A DNA stretch of 64,000 nucleotides, from NCBI GenBank assembly GCA_965223665.1, contig OZ245011.1, forward strand, positions 1,888,001-1,952,000, in the 5' to 3' direction. The number at the start of each line of letters is the position of its first letter. Position 1 is the first letter of the stretch. The stretch is from Nitrospinaceae bacterium (GTDB taxonomy: Bacteria; Nitrospinota; Nitrospinia; Nitrospinales; Nitrospinaceae). Under the pieces are notes generated by a model. That model made no database searches and was not told where the DNA came from. It worked only from the letters and a program-made list of their open reading frames with translations. Positions 10,184 to 63,743 of this stretch are shown in pieces. Both the position numbers and the translations under genes were made by a program.

Positions 10184-11497
10184 ATGAAAAGGCTACTTCT
10201 TGCCTCACTATGGGCTATTCTCATTCTATTTTGCAGCGAAACATCTTTCGCTAGAACCGTCACTTTAATCACGCCGAAAGATACGTACGTCCGTTCTACA
10301 GCTCCCACAAAAAACTACGGCACCGAACCGCGAATGATTGTCGACGGAGTCAGCCTGGACCCGGAGACCCGAACGTTTGGCGAAGTCGCCGGCTTGTTGC
10401 AGTGGGATGTGTCTTCCATTCCGGTGTACTCCATTGTCGACTCAGCTAAAATCACTCTGCGTTTGTACAATTCCAGTTCCGGCGTGTATCACATTTTTGA
10501 ACAAATCGGATCGTGGAGCGAAAAGTCCGTAACCTGGGATGATTTTTCTCCGGGAAGTACTCCCCTCGGTTCCATCCCGGCTAATCGAAGCGGTCCGGTT
10601 ACCATTGAACTTAACGATGACGGGATAGCTCTGGTGCAAGGTTGGATCGATGGGACTTTAGACAATAACGGTTTCGCCCTTCGCGCCGGGGGCACCAATG
10701 ACGGCATCGGATTGCACACCAAGGAAGGTTCCATCGATTTTGCAAAACTTAAAATTTCGTTTTCAGATGGGCCCGCCACCATTGAACAACTTCAGGGAGA
10801 AATCAATCGACTGAGTGCACTGCTTGCCGGACTTCGCAGAAAGGGAGACACGCTTATTTTCGAAGGCATGAACGTTCAAATTGTGAATGGGTATGGCGCC
10901 ACCAACGGACACCCCGGACAAAAAGACGAACTGTCACCTTTAAAAACCAATGTCAATGGATTAGGCAACCTCATTGTCGGTTACAACGAAAAAATAGATA
11001 CAGATTCGTTCGAGGATTTCTTAGACGAGGATTCTGTGTTGTCGGACAAAACCGGCTCTCATAATATTATCGTAGGACATGGCCACAATTATTCAAGTTT
11101 CGGCGGCCTGGTGGCCGGCTGGGATAATATTGTATCGAGTCCATATTCTACAGTGAGCGGAGGCAAATACAATCACGCCAGCGAATTCTGCTCTACGGTC
11201 GGTGGCGGATTCCTCAACGTCGCCAGTGGAGATTACTCGGCGGTCAGTGGCGGTTACCAGCAGATTGCCAGTGGAGACAACTCCAACGTGAGCGGAGGAT
11301 TCCGTAACAAGGCCACCGGATTTGCTTCGCATGTTAGTGGCGGATTTTCCAACATCGCCAGCGGGGAAAGATCGAGTATCAACGGAGGCATCGCCAACAA
11401 AGCCTTTGGAGAAAACTCTACCGTCAGTGGAGGCGGCCACCGGGAAGCCTCCGGAGAAAACGATTGGGTGGCCGGCAGTTTGTATGAGAAAGAATAG
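10184..11497 (+). CDS. Secreted DNRLRE-like domain protein, type A (coiled coil + NGLGNLIVGY module + 15-aa Gly/Ser solenoid repeats); paralog 1
   Basis: Signal peptide; DTYVRSTAPTKNYG, LQWDVSSIP, GIALVQGWIDG; 7 SxVSGGxxNxA-type units; ends DWVAGSLYE. Confidence 0.88.
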   Translation: MKRLLLASLWAILILFCSETSFARTVTLITPKDTYVRSTAPTKNYGTEPRMIVDGVSLDPETRTFGEVAGLLQWDVSSIPVYSIVDSAKITLRLYNSSSGVYHIFEQIGSWSEKSVTWDDFSPGSTPLGSIPANRSGPVTIELNDDGIALVQGWIDGTLDNNGFALRAGGTNDGIGLHTKEGSIDFAKLKISFSDGPATIEQLQGEINRLSALLAGLRRKGDTLIFEGMNVQIVNGYGATNGHPGQKDELSPLKTNVNGLGNLIVGYNEKIDTDSFEDFLDEDSVLSDKTGSHNIIVGHGHNYSSFGGLVAGWDNIVSSPYSTVSGGKYNHASEFCSTVGGGFLNVASGDYSAVSGGYQQIASGDNSNVSGGFRNKATGFASHVSGGFSNIASGERSSINGGIANKAFGENSTVSGGGHREASGENDWVAGSLYEKE

Positions 11498-11652
11498 TTT
11501 TGTTCCCTTCCCCGAACATAGTGTTTCCTTCCTTTTTCGACAAAAAGTTCTAAACCATTAAAAATCGCTAACATAGACCTGCCTTTTTCTTTACGATCCA
11601 GTTTGTACCGAAATCGGTTTTCCAATTACCCCCAATTTGCCCCCATCAAGTT

Positions 11653-11681
11653 TTGACAAAACCGGCTAAAGGGTATAAATT
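11653..11681 (+). promoter_or_regulatory. Sigma70-type promoter for paralog 2
   Basis: TTGACA-17bp-TAAATT about 50 bp upstream of ATG 11731. Confidence 0.6.
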
Positions 11682-11730
11682 TTGGCCAAATAACCAAATT
11701 TAATACAGTTTCTCACCGTGAGGAGGGGGC

Positions 11731-13206: not shown

Positions 13207-13334
13207 TTGACAAGCCCTGAAATTTAATATCGAGTCTAAAGCAGTTCTCATGAAATGTTGTTTAAGATGAATCTCTTTAAATATTTTCCTTTCAATTTTT
13301 TCAAATAACTAATCCTTATTCAGTGGGGGGAACT

Positions 13335-14883: not shown

Positions 14884-15068
14884 GAGCCATCCTAAAAATT
14901 TGTCTGGCTCAAAGATTATTTAAATCGGTTTTGGTTTTTATAATTAGTCTCAGTTCAATCTAAATCTTTAATGAGAGGTCTTCCTTTGGGTTCAGACGTC
15001 CGTTGTTTGAAGATTTTTCTATTTCAGACCTCTCTCAATAATCTGACTTCCAAAGGGGGGGGCGTTTC

Positions 15069-24402: not shown

Positions 24403-27228
24403 TTAAGGATCAGGAGGAAGTTCCACCTGGGTTTCTTCCATTCTTTTCCGTTGCTCATCCAAAGATTTTTGAACGCGCCCCAAATTCTCCTGAAACGCTT
24501 TCATAAAAGTCGGGGAAATCCATCCTCCAAATCCTTTTTTAAAAATGGCTCTATCTTTGGAATAGCTCTGCCGTTTCAGCATCTTTTCCATAAGGATCAT
24601 CGAGGCATCGTTCTTTTGCCGCTTGATCTTTTCAAAAAAACTGGAGTATCTATTAGAAAGATCCATGCTGAACACACAGTCATACGTGTTCGGTTTTATT
24701 TTACTGCAGGAATGCGCTTTGGCACTGTTGATGGTGGTGATCATATATGGAACACTGGGGTTGAAAAAAAGCTGAAATGAAATACTGTGACCGGACAGGA
24801 CACGCTGAAAATTGAGGGACAGCTTACGCGAATTCACATAAGCTTGCATAATTTCCACTTCACCCACCGCACCGGCGGCCTTGGGCTTGCCTTCGTTCCG
24901 GGCCACAATCTCTTGAAATTCTTCCTCCATTTCCAATTCCAATTTTCGTATAGCGAAACGGCCTGCCAAATCCATACGACCCAATAAATTGGTATCCCCG
25001 CGAAGACTTAAATGCCGATACATAAACTCTCTAAACTCTTTAAACGTTACCGATTTATCTGTTATAAACTCTATTAGCAGTTTTTTCGCTTCCTTGGCAT
25101 CCAATTCGCGTCGTTTCCAGAATATTTTTATATTGCGTCGAAACTCTCTTCCTTCGAGGTCTTGATAACGGGTCGTGTATTTATAATGCCAGATCATTCC
25201 CGCCTGCAGCGCCTGTAACTTGCGCCCGAGAGTATTGATTTCTTCCGGTTCACCTTTGATCCTTGCATACAATTCCGGATCATAATATTTCGGTTCTGTA
25301 CGGATACGGCTGGCATTTTTCTCCGCCAATTCGGAACGGGTTTTAAGCGGTGAATTTTTTATAAGGTCCAGCGTCCAAGGCATTTTAGTTTGATAAAACC
25401 TAATGTTGCGTTGATCACAGGGAATGGCGGTTCGCGGAAGCGGTTGTTTAGAAGGAGGAGGGATTCCCAAGCGTTGTTCAACTATCTGATCAAAGGCGGC
25501 CAGATAATTTTCTTTGGGAGACACATTACATTTCTTAAACGTACCCAATCCTATACGGATCACTGTGCGTAATTTCTTTAAACTTTCTATCCTATATCCC
25601 ATTTCTTTTGCGGGAACGGGAAATAATTCTTCCGGATCATCCCCTTTCACATTTTGGAGGATAAATCCGACAGGCCGGTCTATCGGCGGCCCTGCGGGAC
25701 CCATAGGATTTCCTTGCCCATCACTGGCAACGTAATGAAACAGCAGTTCGAGGCTGGGCGCTAAGCCTTCTTCGTTCAGTAGCACCACTTTCGGGCAATC
25801 TAATTGACGTTCTTCTCTTGGGTTATAAATGTGAGAATCTGCGGATTGTTTGGGTTTCGGTTTCGGTGGAGATAAAAAAGAAGTTTCCTTCAAAAAGTTT
25901 TTAAGAATCGCTTCATCAAACAATTCTTCCGCTTCATCCAGTTTCTCAGGATAAAGTCGATTGATCTCCTGCAGGTAGCTGCTTTTGATTTCGCCTGCCC
26001 GCTTAATATCACACTGACTGATTTTCCCCGCACGTCCAGCAACCGATTTCGCCTGGCGGATGATCTGGTCGCGCGGCACAGGAGGGCCCTCGGATTCCGG
26101 GATAGCTACATGCGTCGCGGCGGGGTCGACATCCCATTGTTTAAACCCGTGACCGGCTTTTTGAATGGCTTCTTTGAAGGCGGCTTTATCCGATTTACCC
26201 AAACCAATGTAACGCAGGCGACCTTCATTGATGAGTTCCTTAATTTCTTCAGGATCGGTATTCCCCGGTTGGTTCAATTTCGCCATGGCTGCGGCAAGCC
26301 AGTCTCTACGTTCCCGTTTCATTTCAATAAACCGAAGAGCGATGGAAGAAGAAAATTGAAGTCCCAGATCCCAAAAGGCACGTCTCATTTCCTGCCTTTG
26401 CCAGTTATATTCGTTTTCTTTCGTGGGTTTAAAACAGGGAGAGATCGTTTTATTCCAAAGATCGATTCGTTCCTGTTTACCCATACCGCGGAAGGATCGC
26501 CCAAAGACCGGAACAAAATAATGGTCTTGAAATAAATCGGCCATAAGATGATACGGTCGGGTTCGAAAGTCCACCTTCGGATAATCTTTTTCGACTTGTT
26601 CACTCCACGCAATGATTTTTCCACAGGGGATGTCATAGGTTTTCCCAGGTTGAGGTTGTTCTGAAGGAAAACCTCTTCTTCCTGCGCGTTGGTTGGTCCG
26701 TCCACCGGAACGCCGGCGGCGGGTTCCCTCTCTTTGGGTTTGTTGTCGGTTTTCCTGTGGAACCCGGGTGCTCTGTTCTCTAGAGTCCGTCGAGGGCCGA
26801 CGTCCACTAAAAAAAACATCCCGTGAAACGAAGACTGCATCAAATGGTTTGCAGAAGCGGTTACCTTGAGAAATAAATAAGGTATCTCCCTGGCGATTCA
26901 GCGAAGCTTTGAATGAAAACCGATACCCTCTGGGTATTTTCCGTATCCATTTACCTCGATTGATTTTCCAATGGCCTCCTCTGGGAATATACCTTCCGGT
27001 AATCAGGTGGCTGCCTTCTTCTGAACCACCACCAAATTCATGTCTGTAATGAATTTCACCTTTCAGGTTATCGCGAGAAGTTTCCTGCAGAACGATTTCA
27101 AGAAAGTACTTTTCTCCGTCGCAGATCGCTGTCCCTTTCCAGGTGCCATTCATTTCACCAGCAAAACTATTACCTGAAAGAGAAAGGACTGAGAGGATTC
27201 CTATAAAAAACTTCAACAAAGTTTTCAT
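24403..27228 (-). CDS. Large hypothetical secreted protein
   Basis: Long ORF; signal peptide MKTLLKFFIG...NSFA at ATG 27228; small beta-rich N-terminal domain (GTWKGTAIC); Arg/Gln-rich linker. Confidence 0.8.
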   Translation of the reverse strand: MKTLLKFFIGILSVLSLSGNSFAGEMNGTWKGTAICDGEKYFLEIVLQETSRDNLKGEIHYRHEFGGGSEEGSHLITGRYIPRGGHWKINRGKWIRKIPRGYRFSFKASLNRQGDTLFISQGNRFCKPFDAVFVSRDVFFSGRRPSTDSREQSTRVPQENRQQTQREGTRRRRSGGRTNQRAGRRGFPSEQPQPGKTYDIPCGKIIAWSEQVEKDYPKVDFRTRPYHLMADLFQDHYFVPVFGRSFRGMGKQERIDLWNKTISPCFKPTKENEYNWQRQEMRRAFWDLGLQFSSSIALRFIEMKRERRDWLAAAMAKLNQPGNTDPEEIKELINEGRLRYIGLGKSDKAAFKEAIQKAGHGFKQWDVDPAATHVAIPESEGPPVPRDQIIRQAKSVAGRAGKISQCDIKRAGEIKSSYLQEINRLYPEKLDEAEELFDEAILKNFLKETSFLSPPKPKPKQSADSHIYNPREERQLDCPKVVLLNEEGLAPSLELLFHYVASDGQGNPMGPAGPPIDRPVGFILQNVKGDDPEELFPVPAKEMGYRIESLKKLRTVIRIGLGTFKKCNVSPKENYLAAFDQIVEQRLGIPPPSKQPLPRTAIPCDQRNIRFYQTKMPWTLDLIKNSPLKTRSELAEKNASRIRTEPKYYDPELYARIKGEPEEINTLGRKLQALQAGMIWHYKYTTRYQDLEGREFRRNIKIFWKRRELDAKEAKKLLIEFITDKSVTFKEFREFMYRHLSLRGDTNLLGRMDLAGRFAIRKLELEMEEEFQEIVARNEGKPKAAGAVGEVEIMQAYVNSRKLSLNFQRVLSGHSISFQLFFNPSVPYMITTINSAKAHSCSKIKPNTYDCVFSMDLSNRYSSFFEKIKRQKNDASMILMEKMLKRQSYSKDRAIFKKGFGGWISPTFMKAFQENLGRVQKSLDEQRKRMEETQVELPPDP

Positions 27229-27467
27229 GGCAAAAAATATCTCAGAATTTGTAAACACAATATATGAAGAATACGGAATGAACGCAAGCTTCTTGCCGGG
27301 AGTCTGATCTTTTTTTTCCATAAAATACTTAAACTATCTCAAGTTTTTTATTTGGCAAATATCATTTAAAAAAAATTTCTTATTGAAACTAAAAGGATTT
27401 TTAAAACACCTTTTTTTCATGACACCCTTTTAAGGCTGATAATACGGTTAATATCGCCTTACCCTAA

Positions 27468-27495: not shown

Positions 27496-27666
27496 CCCTA
27501 CTAAAAAATTTTTCAAAGATTCATTTCAAAGAGGCGAATGGCCGTTCCTATTTTAGCTGGCTTAAAAGGGTTTTCATCCACATCAAAATTTGAATAGCCT
27601 CTTTAAATATTTTCAACCGTTCAAAAGTGATTGAAGAAAATTAAAAATTTCTTCGGGGGGAATCAC

Positions 27667-29214: not shown

Positions 29215-29382
29215 CCTTACTTTTCAACCGTACATTCCCTTCCTATCTCCTTGTAAAACTAAGGATGACAAAAAATACATTTGAGCAATGACAGACTCTT
29301 TATCTCCTTTGGGATATTATTTTTTCGAATTAATACTTGGTTAATTTGGAGAGTTCAAAGATTTCGAATTGAGGGGAACGTT

Positions 29383-31131
29383 ATGGAAAACCAATGGAAT
29401 TCTTTTGTAGAGCTGTTACAGGTGAGAGCACAAGTCCAACCCAATGATCGCGCTTTTACTTTTTTAGATGAAAAAGGAAATGAAGAAGCCATCCTTACCT
29501 TTGAAGAACTCGATCGCCAGGCAAAAGCAGTGGCAGGGTATCTTCAATCGACGACCCAACCCGGGGAACGCGTTTTACTGTTTTTCCCACCGGGTCTGGA
29601 TTTCATCGTAGGATTCTTTGGTTGTTTATACGCTCGCTTAATCGCAATTCCGGTGTTTCCGGGAAAACGAGAACAATCATTAAACAATATTCAAAGAATT
29701 ATTTCAGATGCTCAGGTCTCCGTTTGCCTGACCAACAAATCTTTTTACAAGAAAATTAATCACTTTCATTTTAAAAATACGGACTTGGTAAACCTTCCCT
29801 GGAAGTGCGTGGACGACCTGGCTTTCCAATGTGAATATGATTGGAATCAACCCCTCATTCAAAAAACCGATTTGGCATTTCTTCAATATACTTCAGGATC
29901 TACCGGCAACCCTAAAGGTGTGATGGTGAGCCACCAGAATATTTTGCATAACTCTGAAATGATTCGCGTGGGATTTGGGCACACACAAAAAACTGCATTT
30001 GTAGGATGGCTGCCTTTATTTCATGACATGGGATTGATCGGAAATGTTTTACAACCTTTATATTTGGGAATTCAAAGCGTCATGATGGCCCCATCCACTT
30101 TTGTATCCAACCCTTACCGTTGGCTGCAGGCGATTTCCAAATACAGAGCCACTACCAGTGGCGGACCTAACTTCGCGTTTGATCTTTGTGCGCATACGGT
30201 CACTCCGGAAGAAGTCGCCACTCTGGACCTTAGCAGTTGGGACAATGCTTTTATAGGAGCGGAACCCATTTTCTCCTGCACCATGAAAAATTTTTACAAT
30301 GTTTTTAAATCCTGTGGGTTCAAATGGAATTCTTTTTATCCTTGTTATGGAATGGCCGAGGCCACCTTGTTTATCTCCGGAGCAAACAAAAGCAATCCAC
30401 CAACTTTACTGACCCAAACCACCAGCGAGTGCAATGACAATTCGGACCCATCGGAAATTTCGGAAATTATTGAAACCGAGAAAACCTATATTGGTTGTGG
30501 CCGAAGCTGGCTCGACCAGGAATACTTAATTGTCAATCCGGATACCTCGATTCCCTGTGATGAGAATGAGGAAGGAGAAGTTTGGGTTCGAGGAAACAAT
30601 GTGGCTCAAGGGTATTGGAATCAACCGGAACAAACTAAAAAAACTTTTCACAATTATATCCTGGGCAATGAAGCCGGTCCTTTTTTACGCACAGGAGATT
30701 TAGGATTTATTAATAACGGTGAGCTATTCATCACGGGAAGGTTAAAAGATATTATCATTATCAACGGTCGTAATTACTATCCTCAAGATATAGAAAAAAC
30801 TGTTGAGAAGTGCCATCCCTCGATACGCATCCACAGCACCGCGGCTTTTTCAATTGAACAAAAAGCCAGCGAACGCCTGGCCATTGGATGCGAAGTCAAA
30901 AGAGAATTTGTAAGAAATCATAATCTGGAAGAAATCGTTTCATCCGTGCGCTCTTCCATAATGGAAAACCACGCGCTCGACACCACGGCGGTGGTTCTCC
31001 TGAAACCGGGAAGTATTCCTAAAACTTCCAGCAATAAAATCAGAAGAAGTCTTTGTAAACAGTATTTCAACAATGGTGAATTCAAGAAAGTAGGTCAATG
31101 GGAAGAGCGGGCACAAGCCGTTCCTCTATAA
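29383..31131 (+). CDS. Fatty acyl-AMP ligase (FAAL)
   Basis: LQYTSGSTGNPKGV, WLPLFHDMGLIG, GGPNFAFD, CYGMAEATL, LRTGDLG, GRNYYPQDIE, IPKTSSNKI; no fused ACP. Confidence 0.92.
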   Translation: MENQWNSFVELLQVRAQVQPNDRAFTFLDEKGNEEAILTFEELDRQAKAVAGYLQSTTQPGERVLLFFPPGLDFIVGFFGCLYARLIAIPVFPGKREQSLNNIQRIISDAQVSVCLTNKSFYKKINHFHFKNTDLVNLPWKCVDDLAFQCEYDWNQPLIQKTDLAFLQYTSGSTGNPKGVMVSHQNILHNSEMIRVGFGHTQKTAFVGWLPLFHDMGLIGNVLQPLYLGIQSVMMAPSTFVSNPYRWLQAISKYRATTSGGPNFAFDLCAHTVTPEEVATLDLSSWDNAFIGAEPIFSCTMKNFYNVFKSCGFKWNSFYPCYGMAEATLFISGANKSNPPTLLTQTTSECNDNSDPSEISEIIETEKTYIGCGRSWLDQEYLIVNPDTSIPCDENEEGEVWVRGNNVAQGYWNQPEQTKKTFHNYILGNEAGPFLRTGDLGFINNGELFITGRLKDIIIINGRNYYPQDIEKTVEKCHPSIRIHSTAAFSIEQKASERLAIGCEVKREFVRNHNLEEIVSSVRSSIMENHALDTTAVVLLKPGSIPKTSSNKIRRSLCKQYFNNGEFKKVGQWEERAQAVPL

Positions 31132-31193
31132 GAACGAACATACAAACTCGTTGAAAATTTCGAGTTGACTTAAAAGTGGGGAGAAAACTTTAA

Positions 31194-40611: not shown

Positions 40612-40644
40612 ACTTGGGGTTTCAGAACTGTTAGAAGAAATAGT

Positions 40645-41558: not shown

Positions 41559-41635
41559 CATCTCCTTTAAATATCTTCAGAGTTTTCTGCCCTATTTTCT
41601 TGTGGGCAAGCGTCTCTAAAAAATAGCATCTTCTT

Positions 41636-48189: not shown

Positions 48190-50019
48190 ATGCGAAGGCT
48201 AAAGATTTTTACCTTAACATTACTCGCTTTAATTTTCACTTATGGTGTGGCTTCGGCCACACTATGTAAAACAAACAAGATCACTCAACGTCACCGAAAC
48301 GAAACGAAAGTCATGGAGAGCGAACCCTATGCTTCCGGCGTATACAAAGGGTTCTCTCAATACAATTCGAGAGTGCTGGCCTGTAACAGAGAGCGTGACT
48401 CCAATGGCAAAGGAGTGGAACAGGTATCTAAATCTCCTTTCACTTACCCGGAGGATTTACCGGCCAAGCTCATTACCGGAAAGATTCATTACCACGGTGT
48501 GTTTCCTTTTCGCTATTTCTATGAACTCAAACGTGCCAAAGGAGTCTGGACGGTCACCTCTTACCTGCAAATGCATTATCCTTCTTTGAAGCATGCCAAA
48601 AAACTGGAAGTGAGTGAATATCTTTTGGAAGATTTAGGAATCAAATGCGCAAAGGATAACATCGTGCAACGCAAAAAAAAGGTCGGTTATACCGCTTGCC
48701 GCATGGATCGTGACCGCAAGATTGATGGAAAGACCATCGTCCATCATTACAAAGAATTCTGGCGGCGGAATATCGAAAAATTCTGGAGCAAGGCCGGCTT
48801 TACGGTAAAGGTAAAATTTGTTCCGGAAGAAGTTTCCGACCAAAGGTACAAAGATTTAAAGAAGGCAAACGCAATCTGGCATGTACGATTGAATCATAAC
48901 AAGTCGACACGCGCAATGTACAAAGGGTCCACCTTATTAGGAAGACCGCATCCGTTGTACGCAGGGATGGATCGCGAAACGATTATCCATGAATACGGTC
49001 ATACGCTGGGTTTCGATGATGAATATCAGGAAACTCTTACCCAGGACTCCACTGTTCTTGGGAATAAAATCGATACACGGATTGATTTGGGGGATAATTG
49101 CGAGACCATTCTTCAAAACAAAAGTGGCACTGGAGACGTAGCAATAAAAAATAGAGGAAACAGTTCTTACATCATGTGCCAAAACACTGACTCCCAAAAT
49201 ATAAATTTTGATGACAATCCCGAAACTGAAGAGTTCGATTATTTTAAGGATCATTCGAAAGGTGTGTATTCATGGATCGCCACTTCACGCTATGGCACTT
49301 CCGGATATTGTAAGGACGATGAAGACTGCCCGGATAGACAATTTTGTGATAAAGGCGGCATTGCGGGAGTCGGAACCAATCAGTGTAAACCGGGACATAA
49401 AGATCATTACAAAGTTTGTAGTCGCGGAAACCAATGCGCTTCCGGTTCTTGTAAGATGGGCACCTGTTACACACCCAAATCAGCCGGTATGGGAGACACC
49501 TGTTACGTCAACGATGAATGTTCGATTGGTAAATGCAGCAGTACCGGCGGACTTAAGGGAACTTGTGTGTGCGATGACGACAAGCAATGCGGAACCGGAA
49601 AGTATTGCGACAAAGGAGTTGATTTAACCAAAAACGCATGTAAACCACTTAAGGACGATGGCGAAGCCTGCCCTGCCGTGGGGGGTGCGCACACCTGCAA
49701 ATCCGGAAAATGTTCTTATGGACGTTGTTACACTTCAGGGTCCGTTCCCATGGGAGGAACCTGTTTTGTCAGTGATGCCTGCGCCAAGGGTAAATGCAGC
49801 AGCATTCCCGGAGTGAAAGGGCAATGCGTCTGTAATGATGATAACCAGTGCGGCAAAGGTTTTTGGTGTAACAAAGGACTGGATCTGAAAATGAACAGTT
49901 GCGAACCAAAACTTAAAAAAGGCGAAGTCTGCGGTAAGGTGGGTGAAGTGGGCGTTGGCCACCGCTGCAAATCCGGCAAGTGCAAAGCCGGCTTCGGCGT
50001 TAATTTGAAATGTAAATAG
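48190..50019 (+). CDS. Secreted zinc metalloprotease with Cys-rich repeat tail
   Basis: Signal peptide; HEYGHTLGFDDEY; SYIM Met-turn; about 2.5 copies of an ~87-aa Cys-rich unit. Confidence 0.88.
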   Translation: MRRLKIFTLTLLALIFTYGVASATLCKTNKITQRHRNETKVMESEPYASGVYKGFSQYNSRVLACNRERDSNGKGVEQVSKSPFTYPEDLPAKLITGKIHYHGVFPFRYFYELKRAKGVWTVTSYLQMHYPSLKHAKKLEVSEYLLEDLGIKCAKDNIVQRKKKVGYTACRMDRDRKIDGKTIVHHYKEFWRRNIEKFWSKAGFTVKVKFVPEEVSDQRYKDLKKANAIWHVRLNHNKSTRAMYKGSTLLGRPHPLYAGMDRETIIHEYGHTLGFDDEYQETLTQDSTVLGNKIDTRIDLGDNCETILQNKSGTGDVAIKNRGNSSYIMCQNTDSQNINFDDNPETEEFDYFKDHSKGVYSWIATSRYGTSGYCKDDEDCPDRQFCDKGGIAGVGTNQCKPGHKDHYKVCSRGNQCASGSCKMGTCYTPKSAGMGDTCYVNDECSIGKCSSTGGLKGTCVCDDDKQCGTGKYCDKGVDLTKNACKPLKDDGEACPAVGGAHTCKSGKCSYGRCYTSGSVPMGGTCFVSDACAKGKCSSIPGVKGQCVCNDDNQCGKGFWCNKGLDLKMNSCEPKLKKGEVCGKVGEVGVGHRCKSGKCKAGFGVNLKCK

Positions 50020-52898: not shown

Positions 52899-53329
52899 CG
52901 GTATCCATCAAGGATACAACTGATTGGAGAAACACCCTGTCCTATTCCTTTTTTCCAAGTACGCCAGGTTTTCGACTTTTATAAAAAATCGACCACACAA
53001 CAGATTTTTTCAAAGAAAATTTCTGATATTCGTCAGCACAGAAACCACTACTGAGAGCGAGTTGTGCTCTTGAATTTAAAATTCATTTTCATTTTAAAAA
53101 TTCAAACTTGAATTCCTTCTCGGCTGAAACGTGATTTAATTTTGAAAAAGAAATTGGATCCTGAAAGTATTCACTGGATGGTTTTCTTCGAGTCTATCCA
53201 TCCTCAGTTTCATAAAAATTTAATTCCACTATTATGCTGTTCATAGGGACCGGTTATTTGTTAGAATGCGAAAGTAAAACAATATTTTGATTTATCTAAA
53301 ATATTTGACTTGTGCTTAAAGGATTTCCT

Positions 53330-54247
53330 ATGAATTTGGAATTGAGGTTCCATGGTAGGGGAGGCCAGGGAATCAAAACCGCCGCACAGATTGTGGGGTC
53401 GGCTGCATTTTTTTCAGGATACCAGGCACAAGACTTTCCTTTATACGGGGCGGAACGCCGAGGGGCTCCCATTGTTGCTTTTACTCGCATCAGTGAACAC
53501 CCCATTCAAGAGCGTGGGCCGATCACCCAACCCAACATTTTAATGGTAGGCGACCCTACTCTTCTGAATGATCCGCAGGCCGCTCCCCTTTGCGGTATAG
53601 ACGAAAACGCAATAGTTTTTATCAACACAAAAGAAAACGAAGAAGCTTTAAAAAAAAGATTCAGTCTTTTACATGCTCTTATCACTTTGAACTTTACAGA
53701 TTTATGCATTTCATTTTTAGGAAAAGCTAATATTATAAGTTCTGCCTTAGCTGCCGCTGCTGCAAAAATCACCCAAAAAATCAGCATAGAAAATTTACAT
53801 GCTGCTATCGAAACCGAGCTGGAAGATCAAGGCTTTTCCTCAGACCTTGTCCAAAAGAATCTTCAACTGAGTGATGAAATTTTTAACAAAACCCCTATCC
53901 TTCCCATTAAACCCAGGGAAGAACATGCGATCCAACCCAATAAATTAATTAAATTGGGTCAACAATCCGTAGTGGATGCCGCCCCCATTATTCTTTCTCA
54001 TAGCAATATGGATTTGAGAAAGACTGGGAACTGGCGTTTGAACCGACCCGTCATCGAAAAAGAAAAGTGCAGTCATTGTTTGCTTTGTTATGCGCGGTGC
54101 CCTGAGGGAGTGATCGCAATAGACGACAGGGGAGAACCTTCAATTGACTATGAACACTGCAAAGGTTGCATGATTTGCGCACAGGAATGCCCCTTGCGGA
54201 TTATCAAGACAGTAAAAGAAGAAGACTTGGAAAATGGTCACACATAA
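53330..54247 (+). CDS. 2-oxoacid:ferredoxin oxidoreductase gamma-delta fusion subunit
   Basis: RFHGRGGQG, YGAERRGAP; C-terminal TGNWR plus two CxxCxxCxxxCP clusters. Confidence 0.93.
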   Translation: MNLELRFHGRGGQGIKTAAQIVGSAAFFSGYQAQDFPLYGAERRGAPIVAFTRISEHPIQERGPITQPNILMVGDPTLLNDPQAAPLCGIDENAIVFINTKENEEALKKRFSLLHALITLNFTDLCISFLGKANIISSALAAAAAKITQKISIENLHAAIETELEDQGFSSDLVQKNLQLSDEIFNKTPILPIKPREEHAIQPNKLIKLGQQSVVDAAPIILSHSNMDLRKTGNWRLNRPVIEKEKCSHCLLCYARCPEGVIAIDDRGEPSIDYEHCKGCMICAQECPLRIIKTVKEEDLENGHT

Positions 54248-55448
54248 AAAGAAAATGTTAACCGGTAACAAAGCGGCCGCGTGGGGAGCCCGGTTGGCCG
54301 GTGTACAATATGTTCCGGCTTTTCCCATCACCCCTCAAACTGAAATAGTGGAAACCCTTTCTCAATGGATGGCCAATGGCAAAATGCAGGGGAAATACAC
54401 TAATATGGACTCAGAACATTCCATGTTTATGGCTGCGGGAGGGGCAGCGGCCTCAGGAGTTCGGGTGTTTACCGCTTCTTCCAGCCAGGGAATTTTACAT
54501 GGAATGGAATCGATCTATACCGTTGTGGGATGGCGGGTTCCTTTTGTTATGGTTAATGTCTCACGGGCGTTGGCAACGCCGATCACGCTGGAACCGGATC
54601 ACAACGATGTCATGAGCACCCGTGATTGTGGTTTGGTACAGTTGCATGCGGAAACCTGTCAGGAAATTTTAGATTTTGTTTTGTTGGCCTATGCTCTGGC
54701 AGAATCTCCTGAGGTTTGTTTACCCGTACTTATCAATATGGATGGATTTTATTTGTCCTTTACCCGGGAGCCCATCATTTTGCCTGATGCAGAGGAAGTC
54801 AAACAATTCCTTCCGCCTTTCAAACCGGTTCAACCTGTATTTCAGGGTTCGCGGCCCATGTCCAGGGCATCTGCTGTATTTGGCGGAGGAACTTATACTT
54901 ATTTTAAAATCCAGCAAGACCTGGCTGCCCGAAAGGCAGAAGATATTTTTATCGAAAAGGCGAGAGAGTTTGGAGATCGTTTTGGCCGTTATCATGAGAC
55001 GGTCGAACAGTTTCACGTGGAAGATGCGGATTATATTTTTGTGATGAGCAATTCGTTTGCCACTAAGGGGAAATCTGCTGTGCTCAAACTCCGTGCTCAG
55101 GGGATCAAGGTGGGTTTAATAAAACTGATAATGTTTCGCCCTTTTCCGAAAAAAGCAATTGCTGACGCCTTAAACGGAAAGCGCAAAATTGCAGTATTTG
55201 ATCAAAACCTGGCACCTGGTATGGGGGGAATCACCTATCCGGAAATTGTTACCGCTGTGCATTCCCGGCATCAGGAGCACCAAACCATTCTTTCTGTCAT
55301 TGGTGGATTGGGTGGCAAGGATATCACAGATGAAGATTTTTTGACGGTGATTCAGTATTTAGATAAGGAAGACTTTCATGACCCTTTATTTCTATATGAT
55401 GAAAAAGATTGGAATCAATTTCAAAAAATAAAAGACATCGCAAAGTAG
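54234..55448 (+). CDS. 2-oxoacid:ferredoxin oxidoreductase alpha subunit
   Basis: GNKAAA, FPITPQT, SEHS, TASSSQG, DGFYLS, FRPFP, GLGG. Confidence 0.93.
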   Translation: MVTHKKKMLTGNKAAAWGARLAGVQYVPAFPITPQTEIVETLSQWMANGKMQGKYTNMDSEHSMFMAAGGAAASGVRVFTASSSQGILHGMESIYTVVGWRVPFVMVNVSRALATPITLEPDHNDVMSTRDCGLVQLHAETCQEILDFVLLAYALAESPEVCLPVLINMDGFYLSFTREPIILPDAEEVKQFLPPFKPVQPVFQGSRPMSRASAVFGGGTYTYFKIQQDLAARKAEDIFIEKAREFGDRFGRYHETVEQFHVEDADYIFVMSNSFATKGKSAVLKLRAQGIKVGLIKLIMFRPFPKKAIADALNGKRKIAVFDQNLAPGMGGITYPEIVTAVHSRHQEHQTILSVIGGLGGKDITDEDFLTVIQYLDKEDFHDPLFLYDEKDWNQFQKIKDIAK

Positions 55449-55465
55449 TTTGAAAAGGAAACTTA

Positions 55466-56395
55466 ATGACCAGTTCCACCCATTATAAGAGAATAAAAGA
55501 TTTACATCCTCACGAGGCCGTGAAACCCGGGACGGCGTTATGTGCCGGTTGTGGGGGGTTGGCGGGTTTACGTTTGGCACTGAAAGAGTTGGGCAATGAG
55601 GTTCTGATTTGTAATGCGGCAGGATGCTTTACCCTATTATCCATTTTCCCATTCACCCCATTTGAAGGCTCCTGGCTTTACACCACTATGGCCGGCCCGG
55701 TTCCAGCGGCACAGGGGATTCGGGATGCATTGAATATCAGACTGCAAAATAAAAGTTTATCTGAAAAAGAAAACTTACTCGTGATGGTGGTAGCAGGAGA
55801 CGGATCTTCTGCAGATATGGGGTTAGGTCCCACCTCTGCAGCGATCCACCGTAATCTGGATTTTATTTACTATTGTTATGATAACGAAGCCTATGGGAAT
55901 ACCGGGTTTCAACTTTCCGCCTCATCTCCTTATGGGGGTGCAACTGAAACCACACCTGTGACTCAGGAACATCCTTTGGGATCGGAAATTAAAAAGAAAG
56001 ATTTGTTTGAAATCTGGAAAGCCCAAAACCCGACTTATATTGCAACGGTTTCTCCCCGTGAACCTCTTGATTTATCCAATAAGTTTGCTAAAGCAAAGGA
56101 AATGAAGGGTCCTCGTTTATTTATCTGTATGTCGCCCTGCCCGACTGGTTGGGGATTTGATCCTAAGGAAATGCAATTGATTGCAAAACTGGCGGTAGAT
56201 ACAGGGATATTTCCTCTAAAGGAATATGTAGATGGTGAAACCATCCATACCAAGAAACCCAGAAAACGAATTCCGGTTGAAAAGTTTTTAGAACGGCAAA
56301 AACGGTTCCAACATTTGTTTGTACCGAATCGGCAGGATTCCATCATAAAAGAGATTCAGAGAAATGTAGATAACTATTGGAAACAATATGAGTGA
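55466..56395 (+). CDS. 2-oxoacid:ferredoxin oxidoreductase beta (TPP-binding) subunit
   Basis: CAGCG, GDG...YDNEAYGNTGFQ, SPCPTGW. Confidence 0.93.
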   Translation: MTSSTHYKRIKDLHPHEAVKPGTALCAGCGGLAGLRLALKELGNEVLICNAAGCFTLLSIFPFTPFEGSWLYTTMAGPVPAAQGIRDALNIRLQNKSLSEKENLLVMVVAGDGSSADMGLGPTSAAIHRNLDFIYYCYDNEAYGNTGFQLSASSPYGGATETTPVTQEHPLGSEIKKKDLFEIWKAQNPTYIATVSPREPLDLSNKFAKAKEMKGPRLFICMSPCPTGWGFDPKEMQLIAKLAVDTGIFPLKEYVDGETIHTKKPRKRIPVEKFLERQKRFQHLFVPNRQDSIIKEIQRNVDNYWKQYE

Positions 56396-58508
56396 AGTCT
56401 TAAACTCCACCGCTGAAAATAATTTCAAGAAAGATAAAAAGGCATCGTCTCAAATAAATTCCTTTTTCTCCCCAAAGTCCGTTGCCATCATTGGCGCTTC
56501 CAGTAAACCGGGAAACCAGGGAGGCCGGATTGTAAAAAGTCTGCAAACGCAGGGATATCCCGGACAAATTACTCTGGTGCATCCCAAAGGACCCACCATT
56601 GATTCATTAAAACAGGTAAAAACTATAGAGGATTTACCGGAGGGTATTGATCTCGCCATCGCTGCTTTGCCCGCCGTTGATATTCCCGCGTTGATAAAGC
56701 CGCTGGCTGAAAAAAACATTCGCCACATTATTGTGATTAGCGGCGGTTTTTCCGAAACCGGGGAACAGGGTGAAACTTTGCAGAAAAATTTAGAATCTGT
56801 TTGCCACGAATTTGGTGTTCAAATAATAGGGCCAAATTGTTTGGGTGTATTTAGCGCATCCGATCATTTCAATAGCTTTTTTCTCTCTCCAAAGGACATT
56901 AGTTTTCCAGAACCCGGACCGGTAGGTATTCTATCTCAAAGTGGAGCATTCACTTCTTTGATTTTGGATCGATTTTCTCATCTGGAAATTGGCGTTAAGC
57001 GAGCGGTCAATTTTGGGAATCGTGCTGGTATTGGGGAAAATGAATTGCTGGAATTTTTTATGGAAGATCCACAAATTTCTGTGATTGGTCTCTATTTAGA
57101 GGGGTTTCAAAATGGGATACAGTTTTTAGATATCGCTCGAAAAGTAAATCAAAAAAAACCAATTGTCATTTGGAAGGGAGGACATTTCAAGGAGGGAAAA
57201 CAGGCTGCCAAAGCGCATTCCGCTTCCCTTGCCAGTTCCATAGAAGTTTTTCGGGCAGCCTGCAAAAAAACGGGAATCATTGAAGTGTTTGGATTTGAAG
57301 AATTCGTTCAGGCGATTCAAATTTTGACTTTGCAGCCTGTTCCCAAGGGTCCAAATGTATTGTTGGTTTCCAATGGTGGAGGCATGGGAGTTTACTTGAC
57401 GGACCTTTGTCAACGATATGGTTTGAAAATTAAAGAACCCACACAACCTGCAAAAAAAATCCTCCAAAGTTTTTTACCCCATTATTTTTCTATTCAAAAC
57501 CCGATCGATCTCACGGGATCAGGAACCAATCAGCAGTGCGTGCAAACCGTCGAGACTTTATTGCAATCCGGGGAATATGATAGTTTGCTCATGGTTCTTT
57601 TGTCGGGAACTGAAGGCATCAATTCAGACATTGCCGACAAGCTATTAAACAAAATTCCAAAACATATTCCTTTGGTTTTTGTCGCTTATGGAAAAAACTT
57701 ATTTCCTTCGATGGAACAAGCATTTTCACCACACAGAATTCCTGTGTTTTCTTCTGCGGAAGCGGCGGCACAAAGCCTTTCAGTTCTCACTCAAAGAGCT
57801 CAATACTTAAAGTTTCCTCCTGGTTCCAAGGATGATTTTTTATCGGAAACCTCCGTTACCGAGTGGCCCTGGGATCCCCAAGACCCAGTTGATGAAATTA
57901 GACTTAAGGAGCATCTCCGAAACAATGGAATCGAGGTTCCCCAAAACGAACACTTGAAAAATCAAGCCGACTTAAAAAATGCGATTCATAAATTAGGCTT
58001 TCCCATCGTCTTAAAAGCGATTCAACCTGAAATAAAGCACAAGTTGGAACTGAAAGGGATTCGATTAGGAATTCAAAACGAGAAGGAATTATTCAAGGCC
58101 TGGCAGGAAATGAATCAAAGTTTTCCCGAAAAAATTTGGGCCGAGGAACAAATACCGGAAGGTTTAGATGTCATGGTAGGAATACACCAGGACCTTAGTT
58201 TTGGCCCGGTATTGGTTTTTGGAACCGGAGGACATAATGTCGAGTTAATCAATGATATTAATCGAGTCATCTTACCTGCCTCGGAAGACGAGTTAATAAA
58301 CCTGATAAGAAAAACATCCGCTGGAAAAATTATAGAGGGCTATAGAGACCAACCTCCTTTAAATAGGGGTTTACTGATTGCCTTTTTAAAGCAGGTGGAA
58401 AAATTGATGATTGATACACCTCACTTGGAATCTCTGGATTTTAATCCCATCCGACTCTTCAAAAATCGGTTGGTTGTGTTAGATGCCAAATGCACGTTAC
58501 TGAAATAA
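56388..58508 (+). CDS. ADP-forming acyl-CoA synthetase (acetate--CoA ligase family, fused alpha/beta)
   Basis: PKSVAIIGAS, GGFSE, GPNCLG, SQSG, AHSASLA (phospho-His), NPIDL; C-terminal ATP-grasp GFPIVLK...FGPV...LDFNP. Confidence 0.92.
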   Translation: MSEVLNSTAENNFKKDKKASSQINSFFSPKSVAIIGASSKPGNQGGRIVKSLQTQGYPGQITLVHPKGPTIDSLKQVKTIEDLPEGIDLAIAALPAVDIPALIKPLAEKNIRHIIVISGGFSETGEQGETLQKNLESVCHEFGVQIIGPNCLGVFSASDHFNSFFLSPKDISFPEPGPVGILSQSGAFTSLILDRFSHLEIGVKRAVNFGNRAGIGENELLEFFMEDPQISVIGLYLEGFQNGIQFLDIARKVNQKKPIVIWKGGHFKEGKQAAKAHSASLASSIEVFRAACKKTGIIEVFGFEEFVQAIQILTLQPVPKGPNVLLVSNGGGMGVYLTDLCQRYGLKIKEPTQPAKKILQSFLPHYFSIQNPIDLTGSGTNQQCVQTVETLLQSGEYDSLLMVLLSGTEGINSDIADKLLNKIPKHIPLVFVAYGKNLFPSMEQAFSPHRIPVFSSAEAAAQSLSVLTQRAQYLKFPPGSKDDFLSETSVTEWPWDPQDPVDEIRLKEHLRNNGIEVPQNEHLKNQADLKNAIHKLGFPIVLKAIQPEIKHKLELKGIRLGIQNEKELFKAWQEMNQSFPEKIWAEEQIPEGLDVMVGIHQDLSFGPVLVFGTGGHNVELINDINRVILPASEDELINLIRKTSAGKIIEGYRDQPPLNRGLLIAFLKQVEKLMIDTPHLESLDFNPIRLFKNRLVVLDAKCTLLK

Positions 58509-58528
58509 TTTAAAAGGAGGAACAAACT

Positions 58529-59635
58529 TTGACTTCCAATTTACTTGATCCATTTGTCGATGATTTGGGACCCGAAAAAATAATTCATATCTACAAACCT
58601 GAATCAAAACTTCGAGCGATGGTCGTTATTGACAACTTATTTCTGGGCCCGGCAGTCGGGGGTTGCCGAATGGCAAAGGATGTCACGGTCGAAGAAGTTT
58701 TCCGCTTAGCAAGAGCTATGACTTTAAAGAATTCTTTAGCCAGTTTGCCTCACGGTGGTGCCAAGTCTGCAATTATTGCAGACCCGGAACATTGTGATAA
58801 GGAAACACTGGTTCGTGAATTTGCACTTGCCATCAAAACAATTTCTGATTACATCCCCGGGCCCGACATGGGAACGGATGAAACATGTATGGCTTACATA
58901 TACGACGAAATTGAGCGAGCGGTGGGACTGCCCAAAGTGTTAGGCGGAATTCCATTAGATGAATTGGGAATGACGGGATTTGGTTTAAGCATTGCGGCCG
59001 AAGTGGCTGCAAAAAAAATGGAATTAAATTTAGAAGGCGCCAAGTTGGTGGTTCAAGGTTTTGGAAATGTAGGTCGGGCCGTAGCAAAATTTCTTGAAAA
59101 GAAAGGTTGCAAGCTCATTGCGACCTGTGATTCCAAGGGCGCCGTTTTTAGTGAGAATGGATTGAATGTTCAAAATCTAATTAAATTTAAAGCGGAAGGA
59201 AATACCATTTCTCAATTTCCAGAGGGGAAATCCATGACACATGAGGAACTGTTGAAATTGGAATCGGATATTTTTATTCCTGCCGCCCGGCCGGATGTTT
59301 TCAGGATGGATAATCAGAGCCAATTAAAAACAAAATTAGTTTTGGAAGGTGCCAATATTCCCATTACTCACGAAGCCGCTAAAGAAATCTATAAGCGAGG
59401 AATTGTGATTATCCCGGATGTTATTGCCAATAGCGGCGGGGTAATCTGCGCAGCGACGGAGTACCAAAAACTGTTGGAAACCACTGCGTTCGAACGTGTT
59501 GAAGAAACCATCACAGCAAACACTTTAGAGTTGCTGAATCGGTTAGAACAAAAAGACCTGGCTCCGCATGAAGTTTCGATGGCAATGGCCCGCGAACGAA
59601 TCAGCGAAGCCAGGAATTATAGAGCACATATTTAA
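58529..59635 (+). CDS. Glu/Leu/Phe/Val dehydrogenase
   Basis: GPAVGGCR, MTLKN, GGAKS, GPDMGT, VQGFGNVG, EGAN, PDVIANSGGV; TTG start after AGGAGG. Confidence 0.93.
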   Translation: MTSNLLDPFVDDLGPEKIIHIYKPESKLRAMVVIDNLFLGPAVGGCRMAKDVTVEEVFRLARAMTLKNSLASLPHGGAKSAIIADPEHCDKETLVREFALAIKTISDYIPGPDMGTDETCMAYIYDEIERAVGLPKVLGGIPLDELGMTGFGLSIAAEVAAKKMELNLEGAKLVVQGFGNVGRAVAKFLEKKGCKLIATCDSKGAVFSENGLNVQNLIKFKAEGNTISQFPEGKSMTHEELLKLESDIFIPAARPDVFRMDNQSQLKTKLVLEGANIPITHEAAKEIYKRGIVIIPDVIANSGGVICAATEYQKLLETTAFERVEETITANTLELLNRLEQKDLAPHEVSMAMARERISEARNYRAHI

Positions 59636-60403: not shown

Positions 60404-60463
60404 CAACCCTTTTGGAAATTGTGAGATTGGTGCAATGACGGAATTTGATAAAACCCCTTGAGG

Positions 60464-60599
60464 TAAAATCCCCCCAGCCCGGCCCACGGCCGGTGGGAAC
60501 AGTATTTTGCGAGGAGTTACTTTCAATGCAATCTCTTCACAAAGATTTCGAATATGCCTGCTGCATCCAATCGCTAGATTGGGAAAGGGGGAGCACATC
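60464..60599 (+). repeat. REP/MITE-like repeat, long form
   Basis: Begins AAATCCCCCCAGCCC; ends CTGCTGCATCCAATCGCTAGATTGGGAAAGGGGGAGCACATC, aligning with the 3' end of 41419-41558. Confidence 0.8.
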
Positions 60600-60666
60600 G
60601 GATTCCTTTTTAAAATTTGTTTTATTTTGTTCATTTACTTTTGAAATTTCAAAATACTCATTAAAA

Positions 60667-61731: not shown

Positions 61732-61928
61732 AAACTTATGTGTATCCTTAGTGAGTTTTGAATGGTTAACGGTTGTTGTCCTATTGCCGCTCATTATATC
61801 TAAATTAGGACGGTACTTGGAAATTATTTGAAAGGACCGGCAGCCGTTATTCGTCTCAAAATTTTCTTGATTGCTTTGGGGGAATGGATTAAGTTTGAAG
61901 GAGAATATTAATTAATGGAGGTTAAACC

Positions 61929-62099
61929 ATGAAACGAATCAGCTTATTAGCTTTAATTCTGTTTGCTCTTATATTGAATGCGCCGATGGCTCACACCCAC
62001 CCGGGCCACGGACCCGATTCCATTTCCAAAACCAAAGGCGGGACCGATAAACAAAACTGCCATTGGGACAAAAAAAGCGGAACAAAGCACTGTCATTAA
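61929..62099 (+). CDS. Small secreted His/Cys protein, YHYH-domain-like (not in ORF track)
   Basis: GGAGG RBS; MKRISLLALILFALILNAPMAHTHPGHGPDSISKTKGGTDKQNCHWDKKSGTKHCH*. Confidence 0.8.
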   Translation: MKRISLLALILFALILNAPMAHTHPGHGPDSISKTKGGTDKQNCHWDKKSGTKHCH

Positions 62100-62555
62100 T
62101 TTCTTAGAGGGATTTCTTTTTTTTGCAAATCTCCGGACGTCCGCACATCTTATCTGCGTCCGCTGACGTGGGGATCATCGTTTATCCAAACAATCTGTTC
62201 AATAATCTGTATTTGTAGAAACTACTTAACATGTTTACTCCATCTCCATCGTTCGCCTAACGTTGAATTTTCTCTACCCAAAATTTAGGACTGCACCCTT
62301 ATTAGTGGCATAAATTTGAGGTCCTTCTTTTTATTGTTGTTCCTTAAATGATTTATCTATGATGAAACCCCACCGAGAAAAATTTTTCTTCAAAACTTTT
62401 TAAATTTAAAGTTCCGAAATTTAGAATAAAGACTTCCTAAAAAATATCTTTATAGATGAAGGGGGAAAATATATTCCTAAATTTTTCCCTGGTGGGTATC
62501 TCTTTTTTTCTTTTCCTCCTTGTTTAGTTATTCAAACGTTTTAATGGAGGATGCT

Positions 62556-63743
62556 ATGCAGAAATATTTAAAAATCTTATTTGGAGTTTTATTGTTTTCC
62601 TTTTTTTCGAGCAGTTTGGCGTTCGCGGTAATCACTAAAAGTTTCAATGCGACGGAAGACAGTTATGTGCGAGAAACCTCTCCAACTACTAATTATGGTA
62701 GCGATGTGGTTCTGATTTCTGATGGTGTCAACCAGGATCCGGACAATGGCAGATACGGAGAAGTCATCACGTTAGTAAAATGGGATTTATCTACAATTCC
62801 GGCCGAAGCGACCATAACCGGTGTTTCCATTTCATTCGGTTATTTAGATGCCAGCGCTGATCGGTATCACTTCTATTCGCAGGATTCTGCATGGAAAGAG
62901 GGGTCGGTAACTTGGGATGATTTAAATATCGACTCTACTCTTTTAGGAGTCATTCCTGCTTTTACTTTTGGGATGGGAACTCATCCATTAAACTCAGCTG
63001 GAATAGCTTTAGTGCAAGGTTGGGTGGACGGGTCAATTTCTAATAATGGAATAGTCGTTCGTACCAGTGGCACCAATAATGGCATTACTATGGATTCTAA
63101 AGAATCTAAAGGATTCATTCCCAAATTAGAAATCCAATACGATGCGGATTTTATCATTGATGAATTACTCTCAAGGATTGAACAATTAGAAACCATTCTG
63201 GCTGGGGTGAGTCGGAATGGCAAGACCCTTTTTTTGGAAGGAATGAATTTACAAATCGTCAACGGCCTTGGTACTACCAACGGTAACCCGGACGATCCTA
63301 CGGGTAATCTGGGAACCGTCAATGGGCTTGGCAATATCATCGTGGGTTATAATGAGGCCAACCAAGTATCCGATAAGTCTGGTTCGCATAATGTGGTGAT
63401 TGGCCATGGACATAATTATTCAAGCTTTGGTGGATTGGTAACTGGGAAGAACAACAATATTTTCGGGGCTTATTCTAATGTAAGCGGAGGTTCCTCGAAT
63501 ACCGCCAGTGGATTTCAAGCCAGTATCAGTGGCGGTTCTTCTAATACGGCCAGTGGATCGCAAGCCAGTATTTCGGGAGGGTTCACTAATGTAGCTGGTG
63601 GATTTAATACTTCCCATTCTAGTGTGAGTGGAGGCAGTCATAATACAGCCAGTGGAACCACTTCTAGTGTGAGTGGCGGTGAAAATAGAACCGCTTCAGG
63701 TTCAAACGACTGGGTCGCTGGCAGTTTGTTTGAAGATTTTTAG
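62556..63743 (+). CDS. Secreted DNRLRE-like domain protein, type A; paralog 11
   Basis: GGAGG RBS before ATG 62556; NGLGNIIVGYNE; 5 solenoid units; ends DWVAGSLFEDF. Confidence 0.9.
   Translation: MQKYLKILFGVLLFSFFSSSLAFAVITKSFNATEDSYVRETSPTTNYGSDVVLISDGVNQDPDNGRYGEVITLVKWDLSTIPAEATITGVSISFGYLDASADRYHFYSQDSAWKEGSVTWDDLNIDSTLLGVIPAFTFGMGTHPLNSAGIALVQGWVDGSISNNGIVVRTSGTNNGITMDSKESKGFIPKLEIQYDADFIIDELLSRIEQLETILAGVSRNGKTLFLEGMNLQIVNGLGTTNGNPDDPTGNLGTVNGLGNIIVGYNEANQVSDKSGSHNVVIGHGHNYSSFGGLVTGKNNNIFGAYSNVSGGSSNTASGFQASISGGSSNTASGSQASISGGFTNVAGGFNTSHSSVSGGSHNTASGTTSSVSGGENRTASGSNDWVAGSLFEDF

Follow-up and report, generated by a model that had tools for sequence, protein, structure and literature searches.

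The window analysed here (64,000 nucleotides of a Nitrospinaceae bacterium; contig OZ245011.1 of assembly GCA_965223665.1, positions 1,888,001 to 1,952,000) carries eleven paralogous genes, P0001 to P0011, which encode secreted proteins built from one constant N-terminal domain and a C-terminal tail of one of four types (A to D; Table 1). An initial annotation made from the letters of the window had proposed this set, with six tails of type A, three of type B and one each of types C and D, and translation together with alignment confirmed the genes, their positions and the tail classes. All eleven open reading frames (ORFs) are stop-free when translated from the start codons given in that annotation. 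A longer ORF from an upstream GTG or TTG is possible in four of them, but the ATG starts yield proper signal peptides. All eleven N-termini show a basic residue followed by a hydrophobic stretch, and an A-x-A type site stands a few residues upstream of the domain. The eleven-way protein alignment contains 32 invariant columns, including D54, G55, D59, P60, G66 and E67 in the acidic loop DGVxQDPDNGxxGEV, and the N-terminal domain (N-domain) by itself has a mean column identity of 67%. Upstream region and ribosome-binding site are separate for each of the paralog genes. In P0003, P0004 and P0005, runs of six to eight G just before the start (13310-13334, 15045-15068 and 27645-27666, respectively) probably represent ribosome-binding sites.

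Table 1. The eleven paralogous genes of the window (positions are those of the window).
Gene	Position	Strand	Tail type	Features
P0001	10184..11497	+	A	signal peptide, DNRLRE/CBM96, coiled coil, 15-residue beta-roll, C-terminal DWVAGSL motif
P0002	11731..12957	+	A	
P0003	13335..14648	+	A	
P0004	15069..16217	+	A	
P0005	27667..29214	+	D	DNRLRE, then short collagen-like stretch and Cys-rich acidic repeats
P0006	43505..44350	+	C	DNRLRE and 86-residue tail with two Cys
P0007	44484..46058	-	A	beta-roll longest in window
P0008	46500..47549	+	B	DNRLRE and jelly-roll tail like a carbohydrate-binding module
P0009	50343..51392	+	B	
P0010	51782..52834	+	B	
P0011	62556..63743	+	A	modelled as monomer and as tail trimer

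The N-domain is a member of the DNRLRE/CBM96 family, as the initial annotation had suspected from its resemblance to DNRLRE domains. The NCBIfam DNRLRE model NF033679 scored 67.7 to 93.5 bits in all six paralogs scanned with it (cut-off 34), and the Pfam CBM96 model PF24517 scored 38.6 to 60.5 bits in all ten paralogs scanned (cut-off 26). In addition, the conserved N-terminal stretch D-x-Y-V-R-E appears to correspond to the motif after which the DNRLRE family is named. An AlphaFold model of P0011, built on a 53-row alignment, gave the N-domain a predicted local distance difference test score (pLDDT) of about 96. The best Foldseek match of this model was 8WAB (E 4.9e-8, template modelling score 0.70 on the target), and 7VBO was matched with E 1.4e-5. 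With VIA-align, the N-domain reached Z 13.8 to 8WAB (root-mean-square deviation (rmsd) 3.3, 146 residues aligned) and Z 11.8 to 7VBO (rmsd 3.0, 138 residues aligned). The former is, according to its entry title, a chondroitin-sulfate-binding module. The latter is TM6-N4 of alginate lyase Dp0100, the founder of CBM96, which binds alginate through a basic groove of Lys and Arg (groove residues Lys10, 22, 25, 27, 31, Arg36 and Tyr159) and holds a structural Ca2+ (PMC9971899). At the aligned place, the Asp-rich acidic loop of our domain is about six residues longer than the corresponding segment of 8WAB.

The paralogs of the window are part of a much larger family. Across the 4.35 Mb genome, 113 domain matches exceeded the cut-off, and a custom profile placed these domains in 62 ORFs, namely 40 small one-domain proteins and 22 large proteins with up to six tandem copies. 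The description of an eleven-member family thus fits the window and not the genome, and the acidic loop, which had been taken as a mark of the eleven, recurs in the majority of the 113 domains, in small and large proteins alike, with a short-loop variant in some. Among the 40 small proteins, 27 have a tail of type A, four of type B, four of type C, one of type D and two of a further type E, one has another tail and one has no tail. Their genes are concentrated in contig 1, with 34 of the 40 lying between 1.55 and 2.23 Mb. Signal peptides, noted earlier for the eleven, were borne out as Sec-type, and 36 of the 40 small ORFs passed a crude signal-peptide rule. In nearly all of these 36, the domain lies about 25 to 28 residues past the start, a distance that grows to about 37 in proteins with a short additional N-terminal stretch; in two, the rule chose an upstream Met.

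The partners of the domain in the large proteins are varied. A Pfam scan of 15 of the 22 large ORFs revealed a metallophosphoesterase or purple-acid-phosphatase domain in seven (L001, L006, L008, L010, L012, L014 and L015), pectate-lyase-like domains in L002 and L013, CotH in L003, FG-GAP in L004, RHS/TcdB in L005 and L010 (the latter being also a phosphatase and hence counted twice), a teneurin-like region in L007 and PPC/TIG in L009, and L011 yielded DNRLRE-type matches alone. HYR repeats were found in many of the scanned ORFs, and weak Disaggr_repeat matches occurred across the large DNRLRE proteins. Because these partners are mostly not carbohydrate-active enzymes, targeting to a substrate does not explain the domain fusions. 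L010 (3667 residues; contig 1, 3037711-3048711) combines a purple-acid-phosphatase-like N-terminus, one DNRLRE domain, SpvB, TcdB-mid and RHS repeats with a C-terminal TseH-like effector domain.

The type A tail, as laid out in P0011, consists of a helix (residues 200-214), a conserved NGLGNLIVGY/GSHN block, a series of 15-residue repeats (consensus S-S-V-S-G-G-x-x-N-x-A-S-G-x-x) and the ending DWVAGSLFE, and type A proteins stop 8 to 10 residues past the last repeat. Across the genome's 27 type A tails, 134 of 164 successive spacings of the repeat motif were exactly 15 residues. By sequence, the tail is matched by the head of UspA1 (3PR7, E 5.2e-7), and the UspA1_rep model exceeded its cut-off in one of the ten paralogs scanned (P0001, 44.7 bits versus 27). 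The Pfam matches of the same ten contained no anchor family of the kind of the YadA-type C-terminal beta-barrel.

The oligomeric state of this tail was addressed by structure prediction with three copies of residues 196-395 of P0011, in three runs and with three controls. The trimer score was 0.97 in all three runs and 0.00 in the best control, at least 94% of contacts agreed between runs, and partner pLDDT was at least 93. The pLDDT of the tail rose from 50-83 as a monomer to 93-94 as a trimer. The mark used for a trimer had been calibrated with two copies, not three, and was then passed by 20 of 30 one-chain pairs and by 1 of 23 solved single chains. The predicted contacts are periodic, recurring every 15 residues, and the variable repeat positions 8, 10 and 14 lie outside the modelled interface, with 7 and 15 at its edge. 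The type A tail is thus predicted to be a homotrimer, and the earlier view of a coiled coil plus 15-residue solenoid forming a trimeric, fibre-like head is supported by this prediction. Two other identities were considered for the tail and rejected. An ice-binding function was suggested by a weak match to the ice-binding roll of a grass (3ULT, E 0.0029), but PF21300 (LbR_Ice_bind) reached at best 24.1 bits against a cut-off of 30, and in the modelled trimer a portion of every repeat is hidden in the interface. A phage tail fibre or tailocin was rejected because no phage genes were present among the neighbours scanned.

Tails of type A are not tied to the N-domain. The tail had 2615 matches among 8000 scored, with tail-only matches in many phyla. 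There it forms the C-terminal part of proteins in which it is preceded by a membrane helix with a coiled coil (P0111), by long coiled coils (P0083 and P0074), by collagen (P0079) or by FG-GAP. One protein of this genome, P0124, likewise bears the type A tail behind a long coiled coil and without a DNRLRE domain.

The type B tail was modelled at pLDDT 72 to 90 on a 7-row alignment as a jelly-roll, the best structural matches of which are all carbohydrate-binding modules (CBMs): CBM22 (Z 11.3) and a porphyran-binding module (Z 11.1), followed by CBM15, 16, 6, 36 and 35. A profile of three type B tails reached 410 representatives at E <= 0.001, mostly in C-terminal position; the three proteins reached by a word-index search reflect the low sensitivity of that index. 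Of 66 such relatives scanned, two carried collagen, two a YadA head and two FG-GAP, and none carried CBM96. In the Atlas, the type B tail resembled unnamed clusters (0.94-0.96) and DUF6623 (0.89). The type C tail was found in four proteins of this genome and one metagenome protein outside it, and its Atlas scores of 0.85-0.86 serve as leads only. For the type D tail of P0005, the earlier description as IPT, collagen and Cys-rich survives in part: the Cys-rich repeat TIGR02232 scored 24.9 bits against a cut-off of 20.8, the collagen element amounts to five visible G-x-y triplets, and no IPT domain was found among Pfam matches at E <= 0.1. Types A and B in particular emerge as widespread C-terminal head modules for which the libraries searched contain no dedicated family model.

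We then compared the domain content with that of 30 related genomes, several of them incomplete (one of the same genus, 17 of the same family and 12 of the same order). The one congener yielded at least 86 domain matches. The 17 other family genomes yielded none, save one genome with two, and the 12 order genomes none, save two with one each. Across these relatives, the expansion is therefore limited to this genus. The whole architecture of DNRLRE domain and type A tail was found only in this genome, in its congener and in a few metagenome contigs. A search of the literature on CBM96, DNRLRE and Nitrospina surface proteins or adhesins, with supplements outside its scope, returned no paper on this expansion.

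Taken together, these data suggest a reading in which the N-domain would be a common glycan tether and the tails the working heads, and to which, as a whole, we assign a probability of roughly one half. The proteins would be exported by their Sec signal peptide, with the acidic DNRLRE/CBM96 beta-sandwich following directly, and the N-domain would tether them non-covalently to a single polysaccharide, probably the envelope glycan or exopolymer of the cell itself. In type A proteins, a short coiled coil would link the N-domain to the left-handed beta-roll, so that the putative homotrimer would present three sugar-binding-type domains at one end and a prism-shaped head at the other, while in type B proteins the head would be a second, CBM-like jelly-roll. 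The C-terminal modules would act as ligand-binding heads, and the large DNRLRE exoproteins (phosphatases, lyase-like proteins and toxins) would use the same tether. Ordinary gene duplication and divergence, together with gene gain or loss and the occasional replacement of a tail, would account for the repertoire, with purifying selection now maintaining each paralog. The tethering, the nature of the ligand and the outward-facing end are inferred. The roles of tether and working heads are deduced from two circumstances, namely that substrate targeting leaves the partner repertoire unexplained, and that other bacteria carry the same heads distally on stalks or anchors. Both lend indirect support to the docking or anchoring role that the initial annotation had assigned to the constant domain.

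Several points weigh against a tether. The 113 N-domains are strongly acidic (medians of 6 K+R and 18 D+E, and an isoelectric point (pI) of 4.05), which means that their ligand or binding mode must differ from that of the alginate-binding founder with its basic groove; bridging by cations is only a guess at such a mode. A CBM in the strict CAZy sense is a module inside a carbohydrate-active enzyme, and this sense does not apply here, as no catalytic family was found in any of the ten window paralogs scanned with Pfam. The occurrence of type A tails without a recognisable anchor, in P0124 and in many relatives, would also allow a free, soluble role. As solved heads of trimeric autotransporters exist and the calibration was made with two copies, the passing trimer score may moreover stem from the prediction model having memorised such heads. 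Finally, none of the results favours the cell's own glycan over an external polymer or fixes the orientation of the trimer relative to the cell.

The last point leads to the main rival, in which the CBM96 domains bind foreign polymers (acidic polysaccharides of algae or particles, or transparent exopolymer), the proteins being free multivalent lectins or adhesins with the N-domain as their working end. Degradation of external acidic polysaccharides is the function of the enzymes from which the two solved relatives derive (PMC9971899; title of the 8WAB entry), and no anchor motif was seen at either end of the proteins. A trimer, if formed as predicted, would offer three binding sites, and the second CBM-like fold of type B would suit the cross-linking of two glycans. 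We nevertheless regard binding of foreign polymers as unlikely, if a serious contender, given that the partners are mainly not carbohydrate-active (phosphatases, CotH and RHS toxins) and that acidic domains fit polyanions poorly without cations. Moreover, Nitrospinaceae, which are chemolithoautotrophs, are not known as polysaccharide feeders.

The initial annotation had further proposed an active system of cell-surface diversification that shuffles heads on a constant dock. Its premise of a modular architecture was borne out. When all 113 domains were placed in a quick maximum-likelihood tree, the N-domains of the small proteins, with their four or more tail types, formed one clade (support of 99 in the Shimodaira-Hasegawa-like approximate likelihood ratio test, SH-aLRT), and the N-domain of the type D protein P0005 nested with those of the type A proteins P0003 and P0004 (SH-aLRT 99), which implies that at least one tail has been replaced. 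Active shuffling would also suit the location of 34 of the 40 small genes within one 0.7 Mb stretch, itself rich in short dispersed repeats, and the fact that P0003, P0004, P0005, P0006 and P0011 have no syntenic counterpart in the congener (best matches elsewhere in that genome being 71% at the nucleotide level for P0003, 69% for P0004 and 66% for P0011).

Other features of the genes make such a system highly improbable. No strongly supported branch forces more than one origin for type B or for type C, so that one origin each suffices. Paralog DNA is 65 to 80% identical in the N-domain and about 40 to 55% upstream and in unlike tails, and in the seven pairs compared it never exceeded 80% in any 60-column window. 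Judged from this divergence, the paralogs are old and free of recent conversion or cassette exchange. Each gene moreover keeps its separate upstream region and ribosome-binding site, and no recombinase, invertase or reverse transcriptase was found in the 30 ORFs scanned out of the 37 others in the window with 150 residues or more.

Comparison with the congener, in which housekeeping neighbours are 82 to 90% identical in DNA, points the same way. Six of the eleven genes have a syntenic counterpart there. P0001 (89% nucleotide identity), P0002 (85%), P0008 (74-75%) and P0009 (82%, and 88% at the amino acid level) have syntenic orthologues, P0007 has a patchy match of 68 to 82% at the syntenic site, and a third type B gene stands at the syntenic place of P0010. 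Strict one-to-one orthology, which the initial annotation had named as grounds for refutation, applies to roughly half of the genes and not to the others. In the three orthologue pairs with unsaturated synonymous divergence, for which N-domain and tail halves were treated separately, the ratio of non-synonymous to synonymous substitution rates (dN/dS) was 0.01-0.03 for P0001, 0.12-0.13 for P0002, and 0.10 (N-domain) and 0.18 (tail) for P0008. The range of 0.01 to 0.18 in both halves indicates that these orthologues are under purifying selection, and the claim of a diversification system was not upheld. The gene family is real and of unusual size, and it evolves by ordinary means.

Very little credence can be given to the N-domain as a pro-domain (an intramolecular chaperone or latency module, as in the TGF-beta family, which is removed or displaced after export and leaves the tails to act alone). 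In favour of this role, the fold matches that follow 8WAB and 7VBO are TGF-beta-family prodomains (pro-BMP9, pro-TGF-beta2, pro-activin and pro-myostatin; Foldseek E 1e-5 to 1e-2, Z 10.2-10.8), the domain directly follows the signal peptide, and P0124 as well as proteins of other phyla carry the type A tail without it. Against it, the hidden Markov model membership of the domain is with DNRLRE/CBM96 and not with TGF-beta propeptides, no processing site is evident in the linker, and the internal, C-terminal or tandem placement of the domain (up to six copies) in the 22 large proteins makes such a role unlikely.

Nitrospinaceae are major marine nitrite oxidisers, and little is known of their cell surface. 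That an organism not known to eat polysaccharides devotes 62 genes to one sugar-binding-type domain makes the organisation of its surface or matrix worth study. If the domain serves as a general tether, this would account for the way in which free-living cells retain phosphatases and other exoproteins nearby, and the purified domain would provide a handle on its polymer. A bolder and distinctly tentative extension is that in this genus the acidic DNRLRE/CBM96 domain might be the address label of a previously undescribed, glycan-based surface display. A single envelope or capsule polysaccharide would then retain over 60 exoproteins by non-covalent binding, perhaps via Ca2+ or Mg2+ bridges. If so, phosphatases that scavenge phosphate, RHS toxins, lectin-like heads and trimeric spikes would be kept from diffusing off a planktonic chemolithoautotroph, whose coat of exchangeable spikes would consist of the roughly 40 small proteins.

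The surroundings of the eleven genes offered a number of further observations. Short dispersed repeats with a G/C-rich palindromic core lie at 36840-36925, 40520-40720, 41400-41590 and 60440-60640, with 13, 59, 47 and 26 copies in the genome, respectively. Nearly all of these copies lie in contig 1 between 1.4 and 2.4 Mb, the same region as 34 of the 40 small DNRLRE genes, and the congener has many copies as well. They may be elements resembling repetitive extragenic palindromes (REP) or miniature inverted-repeat transposable elements (MITE) that mark a plastic region. Among the type B genes, 48190-50019 encodes a protein of 609 residues, Cys-rich and Dickkopf-like in its C-terminal region, which is kept in place in the congener at 82% nucleotide identity. 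In the congener, a 12-kb contig (C10) repeats the type B locus of C13 (2578-2589 kb) at similar identity to the window, so that it represents a genuine second copy or else a duplicate made in assembly.

A 972-residue ORF on the minus strand (24403-27321), which separates the type A array from P0005, has no Pfam match even at E 0.1 and none among the congener matches listed. The cluster at 29281-39253, which encodes an AMP-binding enzyme, a class III aminotransferase fusion (986 residues), a second AMP-binding enzyme, a LolA-like protein and an MMPL-type transporter, is 86 to 88% identical in nucleotide sequence in the congener and looks like one for synthesis and export of an envelope lipid. 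Five genes at 53312-59635, three of them for 2-oxoacid:ferredoxin oxidoreductase, one for an ADP-forming acyl-CoA synthetase and one for a Glu/Leu-type dehydrogenase, have no match at the congener's syntenic site, where the flanks join directly. Finally, the minus-strand block at 1411-5555 (transglutaminase-like, weakly proteasome-like, Alpha-E and circularly permuted ATP-grasp) occurs twice in the congener (C4 and C13).

The closest known counterparts of the N-domain are the CBM96/DNRLRE modules 7VBO and 8WAB, with which it shares family and beta-sandwich fold. It differs from 7VBO in being acidic (pI about 4) where the latter has a basic groove, from 8WAB in its longer acidic loop, and from both in standing at the N-terminus of non-enzymatic proteins rather than in a polysaccharide lyase, and in numbering 113 copies in one genome. 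The type A tail resembles the heads of trimeric autotransporters (UspA1, 3PR7; YadA) in its Gly/Ser/Asn-rich repeats of about 14 to 15 residues, the coiled coil before them and the predicted periodic homotrimer. Unlike those proteins, it has DWVAGSLFE directly after the roll in place of a C-terminal beta-barrel anchor, its order is reversed relative to the membrane-proximal end, and export apparently proceeds by a plain Sec signal peptide without a translocator domain.

Non-covalent surface anchoring is known from SLH domains, which attach to the secondary cell-wall polymer, and from cohesin-dockerin display. A tether would be analogous to these systems in that one repeated module would hold many exoproteins on one scaffold, although the folds are unrelated and no scaffold gene was identified here. 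The multiplication of one domain in the exoproteins of a single genome, often in tandem, finds its parallel in the surface proteins and disaggregatase of Methanosarcina, for which PMC2447325 describes many DNRLRE copies in one genome, and which the weak Disaggr_repeat matches of our large proteins also recall. In that archaeal lineage, however, the domain has other partner repeats, whereas its fusion to a coiled coil and beta-roll was found only in this genus of Nitrospinaceae and a few metagenome contigs.

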